64,000 bases of DNA, from IMG/VR virus record IMGVR_UViG_3300010167_000019, positions 16,202 through 80,201 of that record. One strand, given 5' to 3'. The DNA is from a virus. Its lineage: Duplodnaviria; Caudoviricetes. The notes under the pieces are model-generated. The model did not search any database. It was not told the origin of the DNA and saw nothing but the letters and a program-made list of their open reading frames with translations. Shown here in pieces: positions 6,647-51,565 of the stretch. A program made the position numbers and the translations under genes. Every line of letters begins with the position of its first letter. Positions within the stretch are counted from its first letter, which is position 1.

Positions 6647-7330
6647 TCAATCAGATGGCTTATCGTTGTTCAATAGGATCTTAGCAATCCGATCAGGGTT
6701 TAAAGATTTTAAAACTCCTTCTACATCAGCTTCATTTAATTTAGAATTTTCTTTCTTACCACGAAAACGATTCCAAATCAAGTCAGCTAAGTTCAGCGGC
6801 TCTTCTTCGGACTGAGTATCTAGGGGAGCAGTCATAGTCATGATGATCTCATGAGCCAGATCAGGATTCTCATTGAATAATTCCGATAAGAGCATTTCTT
6901 GCTCTACTTCAGTTTCTGACCTAATCTCATCATTAGATTCTTTAGGAAATAAGATGAGAGTGGGACGCTGATACCCTCCCTTGACTTTATTCTTAGTTGT
7001 ATCCCCCCTTTCTACTATTACAGTGTAGCCACTATTAGTGGAAAATGTATCCTGATCAGAATAGATATACGCATAGTCTAAAACACCAGGTCCTTTCTTT
7101 CCCCTGATGCTAGTTTCCAACTTTGTCTCTGAAGGATAATAGCTATCACTTTTCTTCTCTCCAGCAGTGGATTCTGTCTTGTAGAGTACATTCTTTCCAG
7201 TAGTACCCTCTGTCAGGTAGGATATATTTTTTCCAGTAGATTCTCTCCGATAGATGACACCCTTAGCACTGCTAAGTAGAGCTCGCCAATAGGTGGGGTG
7301 TAAATTCCCCCTGCGATCATAAAATTTCAT
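6647..7330 (-). CDS. hypothetical protein
   Basis: 227-aa ORF at the end of the minus-strand operon. Confidence 0.7.
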   Translation of the reverse strand: MKFYDRRGNLHPTYWRALLSSAKGVIYRRESTGKNISYLTEGTTGKNVLYKTESTAGEKKSDSYYPSETKLETSIRGKKGPGVLDYAYIYSDQDTFSTNSGYTVIVERGDTTKNKVKGGYQRPTLILFPKESNDEIRSETEVEQEMLLSELFNENPDLAHEIIMTMTAPLDTQSEEEPLNLADLIWNRFRGKKENSKLNEADVEGVLKSLNPDRIAKILLNNDKPSD

Positions 7331-7351: not shown

Positions 7352-8221
7352 TTAAGATTCTCCGTACTCAAAGATGACCTTGCCATGCTCATAGATGGTT
7401 ATCCGATAATTCAAATTAACCATGCGCATGAAACGGCTAAAGAGTTGAGCCGAAAAAGGTTTAGGGGAGATCAAGGTGGTCATCATATTATTGATCGTGT
7501 AATCATCTGTTTCTTCAGACTTTAAATTATACTTACTTAAATTTTCCAACCGGAGGATCAACTTGACAATTTTCTTCAAGTGGTCATCTGCACTTTCAAT
7601 AATTTCTTCATAGCCTGTACAATCAAAAACATCTTCCGGATAATGGTAGGTCAATAGCTTAACTTCCTTACGGTAGATGCTAAGAGTATAATTAAGATGA
7701 AAGATTTGGCTGATCCAAATTTTCCATCTCTCCATACGCATAAAGGCAATCTTATTTAAAGCAGCGTAGTAATTGGTAATGATCGAAGTGTTCAAGCCGC
7801 TCATATCGACCAAGTCGACTAATGTGATGCTCTTATTTAAAATAAGACCCTTGACGATCTGGGTAAAGATATTGTCTTGAGGATTGATGGTAGGACGTAA
7901 AATATCATCGGCCAAAGACCGACGGTGGAGGTAGCGCACAGTGGCAGCTACCTCCGGATTGATCTTTTCTGATAATTCAGCTAGCTTGGTAGAAATGACT
8001 TCGGATAAATATCTCCGATTGGAATACTGGGAGATTAATTTCTCCTTCCCATTCCAAATGGGAAAGAAACCATTTTCGGGATGGGAGCGAGTGTGTATTT
8101 CCGAATAATAGTACAGACGATCATCTGCAGGATCATGGTAAATTTTACCCTCTACCCCTGTACCCCCCATCGGGCCCAAATATTCAAAATTCCATTTTTG
8201 TCCAACGACAATTTTATCCAT
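7352..8221 (-). CDS. putative DNA-binding protein with two internally duplicated HTH-like domains
   Basis: Two similar segments, IVKGLILNKSITLVDL...HLNYTLSIY and IVKLILRLENLSKYNL...NLNYRITIY. Confidence 0.4.
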   Translation of the reverse strand: MDKIVVGQKWNFEYLGPMGGTGVEGKIYHDPADDRLYYYSEIHTRSHPENGFFPIWNGKEKLISQYSNRRYLSEVISTKLAELSEKINPEVAATVRYLHRRSLADDILRPTINPQDNIFTQIVKGLILNKSITLVDLVDMSGLNTSIITNYYAALNKIAFMRMERWKIWISQIFHLNYTLSIYRKEVKLLTYHYPEDVFDCTGYEEIIESADDHLKKIVKLILRLENLSKYNLKSEETDDYTINNMMTTLISPKPFSAQLFSRFMRMVNLNYRITIYEHGKVIFEYGES

Positions 8222-8233
8222 TCTCTTGTCCTC

Positions 8234-8941
8234 TTACAGTAAATCCTCGATGTCTGCTGCCTTAGGCAGAATGTCAACGACTGGACCTTTACGGATGGTA
8301 CTAACTTGAGGTTGATTGACATTTGTTTCCCCCGTACGCAAATAAGTCAAGTACATCAGCCAGACAATTGTGTCTATATCTAGATTGGTCAAAGTGAAGG
8401 ATAGAGAATCAAGATCATTCAGAGTTAATAAGACGCTGGACTGTTCATTGTTAAATTTTAACTTGATTCCTTCAACTCGAGTATCATCAGGCTGAGTGAT
8501 TACTAAAGGTAACATTTCAAAGGTGGTGCTGCCGATCGTAAAGACTCTGCGATATTTATTGGCTAACTCTTCATTGACTTGTAACCTTTTATTGAAGTAG
8601 GAAAACATTTCCGGAATACGGATAGCTTCATGGATCCGTTGCAGTTCAGCGATGAAGATAGACAGCTGATAGCGAGTCAAGCCGATATTATCATCCCGAG
8701 AGAAGGGAGCCTTACGCCAAACACCATTTTCATCCAGATCACCTCTTCGGATGATATTGATATTGATAAAGGGAAATAGGTTGACTGAAGTATAGAAATC
8801 ACCATTTAATTCAGTAGTGGTTTCTCCAAAGGCAAAGGTTCGATTTTGTTGTATGGCATTATTGGTATCAGCGGTGAGTCTAATATCAACTGCTAATTTA
8901 CTCTGAATTGTTAAGACACGATATTTCACTTGACGTTTCAT
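8234..8941 (-). CDS. hypothetical protein
   Basis: 235-aa ORF with GGAGG RBS directly downstream of the RNAP gene. Confidence 0.7.
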   Translation of the reverse strand: MKRQVKYRVLTIQSKLAVDIRLTADTNNAIQQNRTFAFGETTTELNGDFYTSVNLFPFININIIRRGDLDENGVWRKAPFSRDDNIGLTRYQLSIFIAELQRIHEAIRIPEMFSYFNKRLQVNEELANKYRRVFTIGSTTFEMLPLVITQPDDTRVEGIKLKFNNEQSSVLLTLNDLDSLSFTLTNLDIDTIVWLMYLTYLRTGETNVNQPQVSTIRKGPVVDILPKAADIEDLL

Positions 8942-8951
8942 CCACTACCTC

Positions 8952-9287
8952 CTACTGTGGCGATGTAATTTCCGTTCTTTCTTCTACTAAATTCTTTTCA
9001 TTGAATTTACGATACTTTTCGCGGATATCATCTTCTACGACTACCTCCACATTGTTATGACTGACAGCATGGATTTGGATACTCTGGTCACCATATCTAG
9101 CCAAGGAGTCTAGGATTTCATTGTATTCCTTCTCTGTGCTACACTTAAAAATCATTTCTTCATAGTCGCCACCTAAGGGATGTTTATCCAAGTATTCTTT
9201 AATCTTAAAATGCATCTCATTCTCATATAATGTATCATCGAAATAAAATGATTCCAATGGATTCCAGGGTGACAATGATAAACTCTG
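8952..9287 (-). CDS. phage RNAP beta subunit N-terminal half, exon 5 (last)
   Basis: Starts QSLSLSPWNPL after the intron-terminal G at 9288 and joins SSDPG in frame. Confidence 0.8.
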   Translation of the reverse strand, partial: QSLSLSPWNPLESFYFDDTLYENEMHFKIKEYLDKHPLGGDYEEMIFKCSTEKEYNEILDSLARYGDQSIQIHAVSHNNVEVVVEDDIREKYRKFNEKNLVEERTEITSPQ

Positions 9288-9748
9288 CTCTATCTTCATG
9301 TGGCTTGCAACACCACACCGTACTATTCAAGTACTGCTCTAGGCTTTCCCTAGATGTTGAGACTATATCTTCTCTACTACACTGTTACCATGTACATAGA
9401 GCCTCTCGTTTCCAGTTGCCATAATATCCTTTAAAGATATTATCCCTGCAGTATGCATCAGGGTGTACTTCCACTTTACTACGCTGATAGGTCTTTCTCC
9501 ATATCGGTAGTGTTTGGAATAGTCGTTGAACCCGTGTCTAGCAATAGACACTTGGCTGCGGATTAAGTAATCTCTAACCTTTTTACTGTATTCCAGCAAT
9601 TACTCTGGACCCTCATGTGTATCACTACCATAAGTTAGTAGTTAGAGCTCTAAACAACTTCCCGCAATTATGAGAGGACCGGCCAACATATCTTCACTAC
9701 CATGGACATGTAATTACAAACTACAGTTTTAGATGATAGCGAACTACA
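9288..9748 (-). mobile_element. group I intron D (461 nt, no ORF)
   Basis: 5' exon ends in U (CCCGGU), intron ends in G. Core elements AAUUGCGGGAA, AAUCCGCAGC, UUCAACGACUA and AGAUAUAGUC. IGS UUG-G-CCGG pairs with both exons. Confidence 0.88.
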
Positions 9749-9859
9749 ACCGGGGTCACTAGAACTTGTTTCAGCGATATCGATAGTTGATAGCATGGAA
9801 GGATGTAATAATCTTTGTCTAACCGGAATTCTCTTTTCGTTACTGTTACCCAAACTATT
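9749..9859 (-). CDS. phage RNAP beta-N, exon 4
   Basis: NSLGNSNEKRIPVRQRLLHPSMLSTIDIAETSSSDPG, the conserved HPS..G.ID...SSSDPG beta motif. Confidence 0.85.
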
Positions 9860-10304
9860 CAAAAGTCTTCACATGTATTCGCTACATACATGCAGTTCTC
9901 TTACGAACTTCTCTAGGCTTTCCCTAGAGTTGAGACTATATCACCTAGAAATACTCTGTTACCAAGTAATTCTAGCCCTCCATTTCGATTTAAGGGATTC
10001 TCACCCACCGCAATCGCTTCGGCCCTACTCTACTCACTTCTTCACATAGAGTTTTCTTCTATGCTATGTTTTCGATAGTCGTTGAACATGCCATCTGCTT
10101 GAGACAACATGCTGCGGATTGACCATCTATCTTCAACCTTACTTACTGTACCTATGATGGTTAGTCATAGCCATCATACCATCACTGATATGATTTAGTA
10201 GTTGAAGCTTTAGGCATCCGTAGTTAGAATTAACTACAGATGGAACAATACGTTCCCGTTCCCGTCAATTAAGAGGGTTTAAAGCCCCAATTGTTTATTC
10301 TATT
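9860..10304 (-). mobile_element. group I intron C (445 nt, no ORF)
   Basis: AAUUGACGGG, AAUCCGCAGC, UUCAACGACUA and GAUAUAGUC elements; IGS AUUGGGGCUUU at 10291-10281; ends ...gaagacttttG. Confidence 0.85.
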
Positions 10305-10307
10305 AGG
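10305..10307 (-). CDS. phage RNAP beta-N, exon 3: 3-nt micro-exon CCT (Pro)
   Basis: Lies between the terminal G of intron B (10308) and the start of intron C. It restores KKG-P-NSLG and is complementary to both guide sequences. Confidence 0.8.
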
Positions 10308-10523
10308 CTGTGTCTTCACATGTATTCGCTACATACATGCAGTTCTCAGTACTAACTTGTACATGAACTTCTACATCTCTCGATGTAGTCGAGACTATAT
10401 CTTCCTCATACACTCTATGACCAAATGTATGAAGTCCCTTCGTTTCCCATTGCTCCATGTCCGTCCAAGACATTTGGCCTCCAATCGCTTGAGGGGTACT
10501 CTACTGACTACGTGATAGGGTAT

Positions 10524-11609
10524 TTACGCCGCTATCGGTAGTTGGTCGATAGTCGTTGAACGTTCCTTCTTTAATTGAAATTTTACCAAAGCGATATATT
10601 TTCTATTGACTCGATTATCTGGCAAATCGAGCAACGTTACTATTTCCCCAGGCTCACTCAACCCACTGTCCAATAGCTCAATCACCCTACCCCGTAAGTT
10701 ATCGGGCCTAGTCTTGCTCTCCGGTTCAGGAATCTCATAATCCCTGGAAATGGACATCCAAGACATACGCTGTTTGATAGAATGGGGTAATGATACAGGT
10801 ACGGATAGCAGTCTAGATATTTCTGCCAAGCCTTTACCTTCTTCCAGTAGCTTACAGACAGCATGGATTTGTTCATGGCTGTAGGTGGAAGAAGTTCGTA
10901 AGAATCCCTTTTCACGTGGCATTTCTCCAGCCGCAGGTATATCATACTGGGATGAGATATGTTTCCATTTACCAGCATACTTGATAGATCTAGCCAGACC
11001 GATTGACACACCAACCTTTTCAGCTGCTCGTTTACAGTTATGACCTCCTTCTAGCAATTTACAAATAGCATGAGCTTGCTCATCTGTGTAAACTGCATTG
11101 GGTCGATCAGTTCCGACTCTAGTAAAGGAGGCATTGTCATAGCAACCCATCTCCATAGCATGTTGTTTATTCTCAGCTGAAGTAGCCCATTCCAAGTTGC
11201 GATACCAGTTGTTAGTCTTGACTCCATCGATGTGGTTGATCTCAGGTTTATTTTCTGGATTAGGTATGAAGGCCTGTCCCACCAATCGATGTACTCTGAA
11301 TGTCCCATATTTTGTTTCTGTACGTAGACTAACTCTTTCATACCCTTGATCAGATAAACTCTTCTTTACTAGGCGACCAAGAGCATTGCTATACACTTCT
11401 CCTACATTGCTGATCATGTAATCCAGTTCCTTGCCTTCAAAGACGATAGGTTTCCATTCGGGGTTTGCAGTGTCCCAGATCCTATCATTGAGCATATCTT
11501 CCATCATACTTTCCATATTCTTACTCATAGTCTCATCCTTATTCTTAGCCATTAATTTCACTCCTTCATCTTTTTTGTTTTTACTTTTACTTTTACTTTT
11601 AGACATCAT
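10524..11609 (-). CDS. intron-encoded NUMOD4-HNH homing endonuclease with two C-terminal HTH-like repeats
   Basis: WKPIVFEG..YMISNVGEV (NUMOD4) and VHRLVGQAF..NPENKPEINHIDGVKTNNWYRNLEWAT (HNH). AAGGAGG RBS before the ATG at 11609. Confidence 0.92.
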   Translation of the reverse strand: MMSKSKSKSKNKKDEGVKLMAKNKDETMSKNMESMMEDMLNDRIWDTANPEWKPIVFEGKELDYMISNVGEVYSNALGRLVKKSLSDQGYERVSLRTETKYGTFRVHRLVGQAFIPNPENKPEINHIDGVKTNNWYRNLEWATSAENKQHAMEMGCYDNASFTRVGTDRPNAVYTDEQAHAICKLLEGGHNCKRAAEKVGVSIGLARSIKYAGKWKHISSQYDIPAAGEMPREKGFLRTSSTYSHEQIHAVCKLLEEGKGLAEISRLLSVPVSLPHSIKQRMSWMSISRDYEIPEPESKTRPDNLRGRVIELLDSGLSEPGEIVTLLDLPDNRVNRKYIALVKFQLKKERSTTIDQLPIAA

Positions 11610-11651
11610 TCTCACCTCCTTAAAGAAATATATTTTGCCAGATCTCACTTT

Positions 11652-11662
11652 ATAATATATCA
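11652..11662 (-). promoter_or_regulatory. early-type promoter inside intron B, upstream of the HNH gene
   Basis: TGATATATTAT about 45 nt upstream of the HNH start. Confidence 0.55.
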
Positions 11663-11860
11663 TCATAAAATATCATCAATTAAAGAAGACTCGCTGCGGA
11701 TTGTCCAATCTCTAACCTTACTTACCCTACCCATGTTAATTACTCATGGCCATTACACTGTCACCAGTGTAACTTGGTAGTTAGAGCTCTAAGGATGTTC
11801 CCGTCACCTTGTAGGAATTAGGCCCTGCTCAGTACAAAGTCATCCAACTTTATACACATT

Positions 11861-12081
11861 GCCTTTCTTCGTTGATTTCCACCGGATCGAGAAGTCCATA
11901 TCATTGTTAACATCGGCATATCTTAAGATACCTGAACCAAAGATTCTGGAGAGTAAAATGTCATTGGGGAATCGGAAAGCAGAAAGATAATCACGGATAG
12001 TAGCCTTATCACCTAGAGAGACTAAGCGATTGATCCTCTTGCTAACTTCAGCTGTCATCAGAGATCCTACATATTCATTAC
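11861..12081 (-). CDS. phage RNAP beta-N, exon 2
   Basis: (C)NEYVGSLMT...DMDFSIRWKSTKKG; phase matches exon 1. Confidence 0.82.
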
Positions 12082-12497
12082 CAAATACCTTCACATACAT
12101 TCGCAACATGCATGCAGTGCACCTAAGCACTTCTCTAGGTCTCCCTAGACGTTGAGACTATATCTTCATCCTACTACTGTGACCATAGTAGTGATGCCTC
12201 TCGTTTCCAGTTACCCCACCTTCAGTTCTTCCAGTGGCCTAGCATTAGCTTCTAGGTGTACTTCCTCTTTACCACTCTAAGGTTTTTCTCCCGTATCGCA
12301 GTGTTAGGAATAGTCGTTGAACGTGTAACTATTTTTCTCCAGATTTAATAGTTACTTCGCTGCGTTTGATGACCCTAGCTCCATAGCTTTTACTATCCCT
12401 GGATCGTTATATCCAGTGCTACACTATCTATCACTAGTAGCTGCAGTGTATGGAGAGTTACAGGGATTCCCCGCAATTATGAGAGAATGGGCAAACT
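12082..12497 (-). mobile_element. group I intron A (416 nt, no ORF)
   Basis: Exon ends CGG-U and the intron ends in G, so splicing restores KRLR-C-NEY. Elements AAUUGCGGGGAA, UUCAACGACUA and AGAUAUAGUC. Confidence 0.88.
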
Positions 12498-13542
12498 ACC
12501 GCAATCGCTTATGCACCATGGAAAGATTATCTTTGGCCCATAGGGTATGATAATTTTGTAAGATCCAGCGAAGCAGATAGTAAATGTTTTGCTTATCATA
12601 GTCATTGATTTTTAATTCAGCCCGAGTAACATCATCCAATAGGCGATTGAAGAAGATATGCTGATACTCACCTCGTCGTATGGTATTCTTCCCTCCGACG
12701 ATGATCATCCATTCGTCTCGGTTGTCGATATTGTGATAAGCAATTTTGTATTCTTCAAATAGCTTCAACAAGCAACCTGTGATTGAGCGTACGTATATAA
12801 ACTCTTCGAATGGTTCTGCTTGCACCGCTACGACGATATTCGACTTCTTATTGCACTCGAAATACAAGTAGCCTTCTTCTCTACTGTAATCATCTTTGGC
12901 TAAGATTTTAATGAAGCGATAGACTTCTAGAAAATTTAGCATCTTGGTAATTGTCAAATGGGAGTAGATCAATAGAACGTTGATGGCATTTTTAAAGATT
13001 TGAATTTTGTAGATGGGCACTGTATAAGATTGATGATTGACGTCTACTAATTCCTCCTTGAAGGTTTTGACAGAGATGGGCATCAAGGACTTAACAGTCA
13101 CTGCTCCAATGGAAGGGTAGGATAATTTATCTACCAGCTGGAAGAGAATATAGGCTGACTTACCTTTGATCTTGTAGTAGCCATGTTCATCTTGGATGGG
13201 TATGATGATGGGTTTCTTAATATAGTAGACTTTGTAATCACCGGATTTATCATAGGCAGAAATCTCCACATCTAGATAGAGTACACCACATCTAGTCTCA
13301 GCCATATTCTTGATGATCTTATTTTTGTTAGAATTTCTTCTGATGACGTGATCATTGACATTATAGTTTTCCTCATTAGGATCCCATTCGTAACCTAAGA
13401 TCTTGATATTGGGAATGATAGAAAATCCTAAGAAACTCATGTAGACAAACTCATGCAACTCTTTGTCAAACTCTCGGCGCATTAAAGGTAAATTTAAATT
13501 ATCGACAAATTGATTGGGAATGGAATTTAAATACTTGAGCAT
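12498..13542 (-). CDS. phage multisubunit RNA polymerase beta subunit N-terminal half (phiKZ gp123 / AR9 gp105-like non-virion RNAP), exon 1; spliced product 571 aa
   Basis: AGGAGG RBS and ATG at 13542. The five exons total 1716 nt and stay in frame. Motifs IKG...YILFQLVDK, KDNL...KRLRCNEY, KGPNSLG and HPS...SSDPG. Confidence 0.78.
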
Positions 13543-13715: not shown

Positions 13716-14396
13716 TTAGGGAAATAATAGCATGGGCAATTTGCCCATGCTATTATTTGTTTTCTCTTGGTTAAATTCTTGATCTAAGTGGATTCTGGAT
13801 TCAGTTGCTCCTACCTGAGTATTATACTTCGATCCTCTTACGATGGAATAGGGTGTCTTAGCATACTGGGATTTGATAAACCAAACTTGGACAATGCGCA
13901 TATCGGGATAGAGTACAACCGGATAGGCAGACAGATTGGTGATTTGTAGGCTGACTGTTCCTTGGAAGCCAGAATCACATAAGCCACCTGATTCGATATG
14001 GATAGAGAGTCGAGCAATAGAAGATCGGCCGGCAATAAAACCCATGATACCCTCAGGGATAAATAAATATTCTTCAGTGGTCATCAAGACAAAATCTCCA
14101 GGCTCAATAATATAACAATTCACCAAGTGTTGTGGTTTTTCTCCGGGTTCTCTTAAAATATTGCCTCCACTAAAGCGAGGCGGTTGACGAGGATCGATGA
14201 TGGCTCTACCCTCCTTTGTCTTGTGATTGGGTTGTGGGATACGATAGGATCCTCCTAAAGTTAAATCAACTGAATTGGGTTGCAGCTGATAAGGCTGAAT
14301 CGGTGTACGAACCAGCATACCTCGTTCGATATATTTTTGAATGGCTCGATCACTTAAGATTGGAGAAAATAAATCTTTAAAGAATCTTCCAAACAT
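13716..14396 (-). CDS. dcd: dCTP deaminase / dUTPase-family trimeric enzyme
   Basis: LSDRAI, QLQPNSVDLTLG, GRSSIARL, DSGFQG, LYPDMRIVQVWF and KYNTQ.GA..SR. The position of the usual catalytic Glu reads Gln. Confidence 0.8.
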   Translation of the reverse strand: MFGRFFKDLFSPILSDRAIQKYIERGMLVRTPIQPYQLQPNSVDLTLGGSYRIPQPNHKTKEGRAIIDPRQPPRFSGGNILREPGEKPQHLVNCYIIEPGDFVLMTTEEYLFIPEGIMGFIAGRSSIARLSIHIESGGLCDSGFQGTVSLQITNLSAYPVVLYPDMRIVQVWFIKSQYAKTPYSIVRGSKYNTQVGATESRIHLDQEFNQEKTNNSMGKLPMLLFP

Positions 14397-14430
14397 GAGT
14401 ATCCAACCTCCTTAACTTTTTAACTCCTGT

Positions 14431-16187: not shown

Positions 16188-16207
16188 TAGCAGAGGTGAA
16201 AAATTCA

Positions 16208-35401: not shown

Positions 35402-35849
35402 CTGGTATTCATTCTCATGTATGCGCTAAGTACATGACGTTCACTTCTGAACTGCTCCGCCTCTCAGCAGACGACATACTATTTCAAGTATGAAGGAGTA
35501 TTTCTACTCGTTTAGATCATATCTTTATTCTGACTACTCTGACCATAGTCAAAATAATTCCCGTTTCCCGTTACCCTGTGTCCTTCCAAGACTAACAGCC
35601 CTCTATCGCTTAGGGGGTACTCTACTGTCCACGCTGTAGGATTTTTAATTCCTATCTGCAGATGGTCGATGATCGTTGAACCCATGTCTACTGCTAGACA
35701 CTTGGTTGCGGATTGACCCTACCCTATACTTTATTACTTTACCCTAGTTGATTAAACTAGGCCACTAGAATATTGCTATTCTAGCTTAGTAGTATAGGTC
35801 TAACAGGCTATTCCCGCAGTTAGAGAATTTTTAGATGCCCAGGAAGTTA
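35402..35849 (-). mobile_element. group I intron in dnaB (448 nt, no ORF)
   Basis: Exon ends GAUGCCU; IGS UUCCU-G-GGCAUC pairs with both exons; AACUGCGGGAA and AAUCCGCAACC; P7 GAUCA/UGAUC; terminal G at 35402. Confidence 0.9.
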
Positions 35850-37290
35850 AGGCATCGCCTACACCGTCTCGTCCGACTAATTTAGTAACATCGCTCTTAC
35901 CTTGTCGAATCGCACTATCGACGATTGTGGCTGAGGCTCGATTCATTTGGTGAGCTGTGATCACCGGAATATCTAAAACAACAGCCATGGCCTTTAGCTC
36001 ATTGACTATCCGATTCAGTTCCATCTTAACGCTATCCAAGGCTACGACGTTTGGACGAATCCGTTTGATGTAGTCGAAGGATAAGGCTATCACCTCTAAG
36101 TTTTCATCCCGCAAGTCTTGGATGATAGTGAAGAGATCATCGGTATTAATTTCTCGGTAACTGAAATACTTGATGACAATTTCGATATTGGGAACTAAGG
36201 CTTTGATTGGAGCCAAGATGTCTAAGGTTAACTTCTTACCTTCACTGCTGGCATTGGTTTCCCCAGTCTTGACATAAGCATTGCCTTGATCATCATTGAT
36301 GATTTTATTTAAACCTAGCTCATTGCCTAGACGATAGATTGCTTCTTCAGGTGTGTAATCAGCTATAGAATCATCAAAGGAAATGTTCCAAATTCTTTCT
36401 ATTGTCTCAGTGAAGGAATTTTCCATAGTAATATAGAGAGCACAAGGTTTCATACCCGGCGTCTTACATTTATAACCCGGATTGTACTTCCGAATGTCTA
36501 AGACACTTTTCAAAAGCATCATACTCTTACCACTGGAGGGAAGTCCAATGTAGATATATAATTTCCCAGGCATGTAACCTGGAGACAATAGGCTATTTAA
36601 TCTTCTTATGCCGGTGACCAAACAGGCATTAGTTCCGGTTAAGGATTCAATCGTCTGAGTTAAAGCCTCCTTGACCGATTCGCTGTCATTAGTATTGAAG
36701 GTCACTTTATTGGTGACGAAGTTGGTACTGTGTTTGATGTCGATCAAGGAATGAGCAATGTCAAATAAACGACCGGCCAATTCTTTAAAAGCTCCCGGAT
36801 GATCAAACGTGATATCTTCCAGAAGAGATTGGTATTCATGCTTGACTGAAGAGAGATAACCGTATTGTAGTGCCTCACCCACCATTTCAAAAATCATCTT
36901 GGCTTCTGCTTCTGAGATGATATGATCATCCTTGATGCAGGCATTGATGATCTCCTCTTTGACATTGTCGAAGTCCGGTTGACGTTTAGCTCCTTCTACG
37001 ATCAAGTCGGTTGTTACGATGCCGTCTAGCCATTGTTTGCTAAACCAAGCGATACACCAAATGTAGGCTAAGAGTTCCGGATTCTTCTTGTATAAGCTTT
37101 CATCGATGTTCGTAAAGAGACGATTGATATTCTTGACGGATTTGAAGGTACGGAAACCACTGTGCTGCATCGTCAAGATCTTTAAGACCAAATTTAAGAT
37201 AGAGCGTTTAAAGAAGACTTGGATTTTACGTACCTGAAGATCTTCGAGTTTGGTAAGTGCATTCTGCTTATCCTTAACACTTTTTGCCAT
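35850..37290 (-). CDS. dnaB: DnaB-like replicative helicase, exon 1 (spliced product 583 aa)
   Basis: Walker A GLPSSGKS, YITMEN, FDYIKRI and ITAHQMNR. Confidence 0.88.
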
Positions 37291-51158: not shown

Positions 51159-51565
51159 ACGGCAGATGTGATAAAAGTGGGAGGCTATACAGCAATGTAT
51201 GGTACCAATCCATTGTTAATTGCCGGAACCCACTTAGAGCCCAAGTAACCGCAGCTAGCAGTGATGTATAGTGTAGCAGATGGTATAATGACCATCGGAT
51301 GGTAAAATCACTTGGGATTGGGGAATCAAAGGCAGCCAAGCATCTCTTAGAGATGAAGGTTCAACGACTATGCTGAAACAGCCTGCAATGGCAATAGCAG
51401 TAGGGCCACAAGCTAATGGTGGTGGGTGAAACTCCCTTAAATCGAAACGCATGCCCCACTTATTACATGTATAATGTGGGTGAAGATATAGTCTGGACAT
51501 CCAAGGAAAACTTGGAGCAGCTTGAATAAAGCGGGATCAGTGTTGCGAACTGATCTGAACATTCG
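51159..51565 (+). mobile_element. group I intron in terL (407 nt, no ORF)
   Basis: Exon ends ACUCCU, terminal G at 51565, restoring STP-GDLDT. Elements AAUUGCCGGAAC, GGCAGCCAAG, UUCAACGACUA and AAGAUAUAGUC. Confidence 0.9.

Follow-up and report, generated by a model that had tools for sequence, protein, structure and literature searches.

A one-codon exon between two group I introns, predicted in the RNA polymerase gene of a termite-gut phage

The DNA analyzed here is a window of 64,000 nucleotides (nt), positions 16,202 to 80,201 of the 80-kb viral contig IMGVR_UViG_3300010167_000019 in IMG/VR, which comes from a termite-gut metagenome and is estimated to be ~30% complete. All positions given below are those of the window. 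On its minus strand, from 13542 to 8952, lies an RNA polymerase gene that is interrupted by four related group I introns recognized with the Rfam group I model, which we call A to D (Table 1). We are concerned with the middle of this gene, where introns B and C stand only three bases, CCT, apart. The gene, that of a jumbo phage, is the counterpart of AR9 gp105 and encodes the non-virion RNA polymerase beta subunit in its N-terminal half. Exon 1 is 25-28% identical in tblastn comparisons to the beta subunits of the Bacillus phages AR9 and PBS1 and the Listeria phage LPJP1, and a profile built from 34 closer homologues matches the solved AR9 subunit (PDB 7S00, chain c) with E 3.1e-51 over profile positions 10-483. 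The homology to this subunit extends over the full length: the window exons align to residues 1-570 of an uninterrupted homologue, P0003. When joined, the exons give a stop-free open reading frame (ORF) of 571 amino acids (aa), 69% identical to P0003 over its whole length, with every exon intact and conserved. More than 250 metagenome homologues were found at 60-76% identity. A query with the exon-1 protein alone recovered no relatives among viral contigs, while an alignment-based query did. A megablast search for near-identical phage records gave a single match, a 53-nt intron-core stretch of the Staphylococcus phage K-like lysK introns.

Table 1. Predicted features of the polymerase gene, in order of transcription, and further group I intron matches in the window.
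Feature	Position	Strand	Description
Exon 1	12498..13542	-	Ends CGA TTG CGG T; 74% identity to P0003 residues 1-349; tblastn matches to AR9, PBS1 and LPJP1
Intron A	12082..12497	-	Group I, no ORF; Rfam RF00028, 50.3 bits; 5' exon ends U, intron ends G
Exon 2	11861..12081	-	Ends AAG AAA GGC; aligned to P0003 residues 351-423
Intron B	10308..11860	-	Group I, 1553 nt; 5' exon ends C (paired to guide G), intron ends G
Guide of intron B	11820..11826	-	AGG-G-CCU; CCU + G pair exon 2 AGGC (P1); AGG pairs micro-exon CCU (P10)
Homing-endonuclease gene in intron B	10524..11609	-	361 aa + stop; after P6 5' strand, preceded by AAGGAGG
Micro-exon CCT	10305..10307	-	Invariant Pro codon: P424 of P0003, P in SGPQS of AR9 gp105
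Intron C	9860..10304	-	Group I, 445 nt, no ORF; 5' exon ends U (U-G wobble), intron ends G
Guide of intron C	10281..10291	-	AUU-G-GGGCUUU; G-GGGCUUU pairs AAGGCCCU; AUU pairs AAU of intron start (P1) or exon 3 start (P10)
Exon 3	9746..9859	-	Starts AAT AGT TTG GGT, ends GGT TGT; aligned to P0003 residues 425-461
Intron D	9285..9745	-	Group I, no ORF; Rfam 41.4 bits, E 3.6e-8
Exon 4	8952..9284	-	Through TAG stop; aligned to P0003 residues 462-570
Further group I intron match	35494-35899	-	Other gene; 54.4 bits
Further group I intron match	~51177-51517	+	Other gene; 38.3 bits

The strongest evidence that the three bases are an exon comes from the protein. Joining the end of exon 2, the CCT and the start of exon 3 gives AAG AAA GGC + CCT + AAT AGT TTG GGT, which reads KKG-P-NSLG in frame. 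Uninterrupted homologues read TKKGPNSLG...RIPIRQR.LHPSML in this region, and Gly423-Pro424 (P0003 numbering) are invariant in the alignment of 34 homologues; the aligned motif is SGPQS in AR9 gp105 (7S00 chain c) and KGPQS in LPJP1. The only possible source of the proline is the CCT at 10307-10305. We take the KKGPNSLG stretch to be the likely counterpart of the GPGGL segment of bacterial beta subunits. Other boundaries that would still give Gly-Pro were rejected because the intron would then have to end in A or C, and so was one large intron running from 11860 to 9860, which would remove the invariant proline. The two-intron anatomy and the messenger RNA junction are thus well supported by sequence: the three bases CCU would be kept in the messenger RNA and encode the invariant proline. 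These results bear out the first-pass annotation of this DNA, made from its letters alone, which had proposed a retained one-codon exon and had placed the end of exon 2, intron B, the CCT, intron C and the downstream exon at exactly these positions on the minus strand, with both introns ending in G. Its forecast that intronless relatives would read KKGPNSLG also held, down to the invariance of the proline.

Each of the two introns has a group I catalytic core of its own. The core of intron C matches RF00028 over the full length of the model (9911-10314, 32.3 bits, E 1.9e-5 in a 6-kb search), and its core blocks align with those of introns A (50.3 bits) and D (41.4 bits). In the same search, the 3' half of intron B (J6/7-P7, P3', P8, J8/7, P7' and P9) matches at 10371-10637 with 32.2 bits and E 2.1e-5. 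The match to intron B is limited to this half because the 361-aa ORF sits after the 5' strand of P6. Scanned alone with Rfam, the 5' half (P3, J3/4, P4, P5, GUAA, AAUCCGCAGC and P6) gave no match; it aligns block by block with introns D and C and with the B-site intron of a relative, L003. Both introns end in the expected omega-G, in GACACAG (B) and ACTTTTG (C). The earlier proposal of two separate, complete group I introns therefore stands, with the 5' half of B placed by block alignment. B and C lie side by side rather than nested, each with its own P1 (the helix of guide and 5' exon), P10 (guide and 3' exon) and omega-G, and the CCT between them is needed for the invariant proline.

The introns also resemble each other at their ends. 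An identical 36-nt element, GAGAACTGCATGTATGTAGCGAATACATGTGAAGAC, lies near the 3' ends of B (10347-10312) and C (9900-9865) on the minus strand; similar hairpin-plus-GTGAAGA tails close most introns of this family in relatives. Intron C (10304-10300) and exon 3 (9859-9855) share the start AATAG, and intron D (9745-9742) and exon 4 (9284-9281) share the start AGTT, which fits a single guide segment that would serve both a P1 extension and P10. Because of the shared AATAG, the exact boundary of C is ambiguous by sequence alone. The junction at intron A, KRLR-C-NEY, agrees with homologues. RF00028 has six matches in all in the 80-kb record.

The guide sequences connect each intron to its own pair of exon ends, and both lie where the first-pass annotation had put them. 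For intron B, the guide forms P1 with exon 2 (AGGC/GCCU) and P10 with the micro-exon (CCU/AGG). For intron C, P1 is CCU, extendable to AAGGCCCU, with GGGGCUUU, and P10 is AAU/AUU. Introns at the B site share a guide layout in which the partner of the Pro codon is followed by a G and then by the partner of the exon 2 end, and the P10 of B covaries with the Pro codon: it is CCU/AGG in the window, CCA/UGG in L003, L017 and L027, and CCG/CGG in L009, while the remaining B-site introns have no clear P10. As had been claimed, B needs only exon 2 and the CCU. The C-site guide, G-GG-N-CC(UU), pairs with (AA)GG-N-CCU, where N tracks the third base of the Gly codon: GGC-CCU/GGGGCU (C/G) in the window, GGU-CCU/GGGACC (U/A) in L010, L158, L163 and L184. 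Since the C-site guide covaries with the Gly codon, the P1 of C appears to span the insertion point of B, as the earlier annotation had proposed. Taken together, the covariation supports both predicted splice sites. The first eight bases beyond the 3' splice site of B (CCUAAUAG) are the same with or without intron C, because intron C and exon 3 both start AAUAG.

To place these sites in a wider context, we collected the DNA of ~45 relatives and mapped their exons at the KKG/P/NS spot. The B site, after the Gly codon, is occupied alone in L003, L005, L009, L013/14, L015, L017, L019, L027, L164/166 and L172; the C site, after the Pro codon, is occupied alone in L004, L010, L158, L163, L184 and L185. 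An intron lies one base past the B site (GGGC|CC) in L011, at 7288-7289, and another apparently after a Thr codon nine bases upstream in L165, at about 3530, an apparent site only, as the contig ends inside the intron. Both B and C sites are occupied in the window and in L012. On the 289-kb contig L012, whose protein is 63% identical, B (7581-8045), CCT (8046-8048) and C (8049-8468) are followed by AAT TCA CTC GGA, with two separate intron core matches in Rfam. Because L012 repeats the layout of the window and introns of both the B and the C type also occur alone in otherwise intact genes, the sequences indicate that the one-codon exon is real and recurrent. A degenerate DNA pattern for more tandem junctions gave, among the matches listed, chance matches only, none of them flanked by two intron cores. 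The B-site intron of L009 (the same contig as L179), at 8369-8604, is very small: it has only 236 nt, scores 63 bits in Rfam, and the sole boundary that restores KGPNSLG gives an intron ending in A, not G (TTTGCCTA|CCG).

These comparisons also bear on the base before the 5' splice site of B. The U that usually ends the 5' exon, with its U-G wobble, is found at C (CCU|) but not at B, where exon 2 ends GGC and a C-G pair forms with the guide G. A C as the last base of the 5' exon is also seen in L003:7269, L015:8237, L017:8232, L019:8824, L027 and L164:6624, where the Gly codon is GGC, whereas the GGU alleles of the B site in L005, L009, L012 and L013 retain U-G. We interpret C-G versus U-G at the B site as a natural polymorphism of the third base of the Gly codon, at a position usually deemed invariant.

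The ORF in intron B matches Pfam HNH_3 (1.5e-8, 34.5 bits) and NUMOD4 (1.6e-7, 31.9 bits), both over the cut-offs. With its HNH and NUMOD domains and its position between the two P6 strands of the intron, it belongs with the I-HmuI-like HNH intron endonucleases. It is 47% identical to the B-site ORF of L003, 41% to that of L027 and 38% to the C-site ORF of L004; thus related homing systems appear to target one conserved stretch at offsets 0 and +3. Judged from these identities, the B-site ORFs of the window, L003 and L027 are orthologous and the L004 C-site ORF is a paralogue.

From these observations, a picture of how the locus would be spliced can be drawn. In B, AGGC/GCCU pairing with exon 2 would serve the first step, and CCU/AGG pairing with the micro-exon would serve exon ligation. 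In C, the first step would pair CCU and, after B has left, exon 2 as well. The P10 of B and the P1 of C use the same three bases, and therefore both reactions cannot run at once on one RNA molecule; from this shared CCU we infer that splicing of B and C is sequential on any one RNA. We estimated the strength of the P1 helices as predicted nearest-neighbour duplex energies. In the window, the P1 of C has -15.6 kcal/mol with 11 continuous pairs after removal of B, and -7.5 kcal/mol in the unspliced RNA, so that the departure of B would about double its predicted stability. The eight P1 pairs that the first-pass annotation had counted for C after removal of B are right (six Watson-Crick, two wobble). 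Its count of three exon-side pairs before removal holds in the same register, but sliding by one G gives five (AGCCU/GGGCU), and it is this shifted register that has the -7.5 kcal/mol. Among relatives with the C site alone, the P1 of C has -8.3 kcal/mol in L004 and -15.0 kcal/mol in L010. In L012 the pattern is reversed: -10.5 kcal/mol in the unspliced RNA and -5.5 kcal/mol after B removal, when only CCU/GGG remains.

We consider it very probable that B and C are two independent, complete group I introns at neighbouring homing sites, one after the Gly codon and one after the Pro codon, each with its own guide, and that CCU is retained between them. As for the order in which they leave the RNA, B before C is somewhat favoured in the window, where the P1 of C is much stronger without B and the B core is transcribed ~450 nt ahead of the C core; such an order would likely be a passive outcome of the layout and not a gate. 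Several points weigh against this account. The P1 of B has only four exon-side pairs, and its cleavage site carries C-G where U-G is nearly universal; in Tetrahymena work, C-G at this position lowers both activity and fidelity. The Rfam scores of B and C (32 bits) are both under the RF00028 gathering score of 50 bits, and a search of sequencing runs for RNA containing the stretch listed no RNA run. The splicing order is deduced from the order of transcription and from nearest-neighbour energies, calculated for short helices, and in L012 the energetics predict the opposite order, with the guide of C fitting the unspliced RNA better. The extra unspliced stability there amounts to two more pairs only and could be chance. 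L012 nevertheless argues against ordered splicing as a general rule.

The first-pass annotation had gone further and proposed that excision of B is a gate: C would have no working P1 until B is excised, so that B licenses production of the polymerase subunit. There is much in the pairing that agrees with this. Once exon 2 abuts CCU, the P1 of C gains five pairs and ~8 kcal/mol; the extended pairing is a trait of the C-site family that covaries with the exon and is therefore probably used; and the P10 of B competes with the P1 of C for CCU. However, the register shifted by one G already provides five exon-side pairs in unspliced RNA, the P1 of L004, where C stands alone, is of comparable strength at -8.3 kcal/mol, so that C may not require the removal of B, and in L012 the departure of B would leave C with the short CCU/GGG helix. 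A group I intron of Anabaena functions with a 3-nt guide (PMC12355055), and most relatives are singly occupied, which speaks against a selected regulatory role. An obligatory order is thus not established by the difference in P1 strength and the earlier transcription of B, and we regard gating as unlikely. Strict dependence of C on B is doubtful in the light of these energies, and it is improbable to a similar degree that the locus forms a relay of two ribozymes, in which CCU is the joint substrate of the P10 of B and the P1 of C, the order is obligatory, and the yield of an essential polymerase subunit depends on the activity of B, the upstream intron with the endonuclease.

The preferred reading of two independently excised introns also has to be weighed against the loss of the micro-exon and against artefact. 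B, CCT and C could exit together, as a composite ("zombie") unit or by exon skipping, giving KKG-NSLG without the proline. The frame would be preserved, the identical 36-nt element in B and C could be taken to point this way, and skipping is documented for the tandem group I introns of Twort orf142 and Coxiella 23S ribosomal RNA, with one-unit tandem modules reported in fungal mitochondria (PMC10136302, PMC12308204). Against this, all 34 aligned homologues have the proline, as does AR9 gp105, the guide of B pairs with CCU and not with the AAU of exon 3, and each intron retains complete splice-site elements that covary in relatives. Such a joint exit is very unlikely as the main route, and skipping of CCT may occur as a minor by-product. 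Less likely still, indeed hardly credible, is a decaying gene with one dead intron, or a mis-join of B-only and C-only strains. The source is a metagenome contig, introns are repetitive, and the C at the 5' splice site of B is atypical, but B-only and C-only alleles would have just 8 nt (CCTAATAG) in common where they meet, a stretch not long enough to cause a k-mer mis-join. The B/CCT/C junction is also crossed, with 0 differences, by a Logan contig piece (10119-10341) that was assembled independently, though it may derive from the same sample, and the separate contig of L012 has the same layout. Decay is contradicted by the intact, conserved exons and by the recurrence of C at -1 in intact B-site loci (L003, L015, L017, L019, L027, L164). 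None of the DNA contig pieces that match the window, which are fragmentary and broken at intron repeats, showed an allele of this phage with a single intron or with none. Many apparent joints among these pieces were set aside, as they have short sides and other letters between, and seem to come from related introns in other parts of the metagenome.

How did two introns come to lie three bases apart? Most likely, to judge from the occupied sites and the ORFs within them, the arrangement arose because related HNH endonucleases, together with their introns, have gathered at a single conserved target. The tandem cannot result from ordinary recombination between B-only and C-only alleles, which have only CCTAATAG in common at the join. 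The earlier suggestion that C is the older resident and B the later arrival is plausible and fits the intact endonuclease gene in B and its lack in C, but sequence alone cannot decide it. Pairwise identities among the introns, at ~60-80%, are too uniform to tell whether B and C are most closely related to each other or to assign orthologues site by site. We see no sign that the tandem is a regulatory device.

It is instructive to compare this locus with known systems. The closest published phage case that we found is the orf142 gene of the Staphylococcus phage Twort (Landthaler and Shub 1999, as summarised in PMC10136302), in which several related IA2-like group I introns interrupt a phage protein gene, resemble each other in sequence, and in one pair (I2/I3) enclose a short exon whose retention is required. 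The Twort exon has 23 nt and offers separate bases to the upstream P10 and the downstream P1, and splicing and exon skipping are shown experimentally; the exon in the window has 3 nt, offers the same bases to both, has a P1 of C that crosses the B site, and is known from sequence. The same source describes tandem group I introns around a 34-nt exon in Coxiella 23S ribosomal RNA, with some exon skipping. Having searched the literature for a mini- or micro-exon between group I introns of phages, we found no phage exon as short as this one. The first-pass annotation's statement that there is no precedent thus holds for phages in the searchable literature, but not beyond them: placozoan mitochondrial cox1 contains a 1-nt exon, shorter than the guide helix, between two complete group I introns, where it restores a conserved residue (PMC5436844). 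That micro-exon was explained by a second intron inserting beside a resident one. The placozoan case is organellar, involves group IB introns and is proven by RNA sequencing with both intermediates, whereas the window has phage-type introns, one with an HNH endonuclease, at sites that are both also singly occupied in relatives. Introns of the phiKZ/PhiPA3 type (PMC11620839) are likewise mobile group I introns with an HNH endonuclease in a conserved part of a jumbo-phage multisubunit RNA polymerase gene, but they are single and belong to Chimalliviridae, while the window has four in an AR9-like gene for the N-terminal half of beta, two of them 3 nt apart. The side-by-side twintrons of fungal mitochondria (Ophiostoma cox3-640 and Hypomyces cox3; PMC8393795, PMC12308204) also place two group I modules head to tail in one gene; in contrast to the window, where the codon must be retained, they have been described as, or are presumed to be, spliced as one unit, and no exon is kept between their modules. 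Intron-dense genes of gut phages and introns in jumbo-phage polymerase genes were already known (PMC12880540, PMC11620839).

Directly upstream of the polymerase gene lies an ORF at 13716-14411 on the minus strand. The gene at the matching position in the relatives L003, L005 and L028-L030 has Pfam matches to dCTP deaminase/dUTPase. Phages of the AR9/PBS1 type have uracil DNA, and on the basis of the matches in the relatives the clade of the window phage may have it as well.

The tandem in the window takes a known phenomenon, the crowding of mobile introns, to an extreme; it is not proven to be a splicing switch. We found no shorter exon between two self-splicing introns in any phage, and the shortest that is published for a phage in the literature we searched has 23 nt. 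For annotation, the consequence is direct: gene callers split the polymerase gene into pieces and would lose the Pro codon. Comparison of the relatives reveals a hot spot of insertion: three well-defined sites fall in a four-base stretch of a conserved polymerase motif, a possible fourth lies nine bases upstream, and the HNH endonucleases of the B and C sites are related. If true, an obligatory order of B then C would make the locus a natural two-ribozyme relay in a phage. Because the exon has only 3 nt and the splice-site helices of both ribozymes overlap on it, the locus is a compact natural test of how neighbouring group I introns share recognition sequences, how short P1 can be, and how far a C-G pair is tolerated at the cleavage site.

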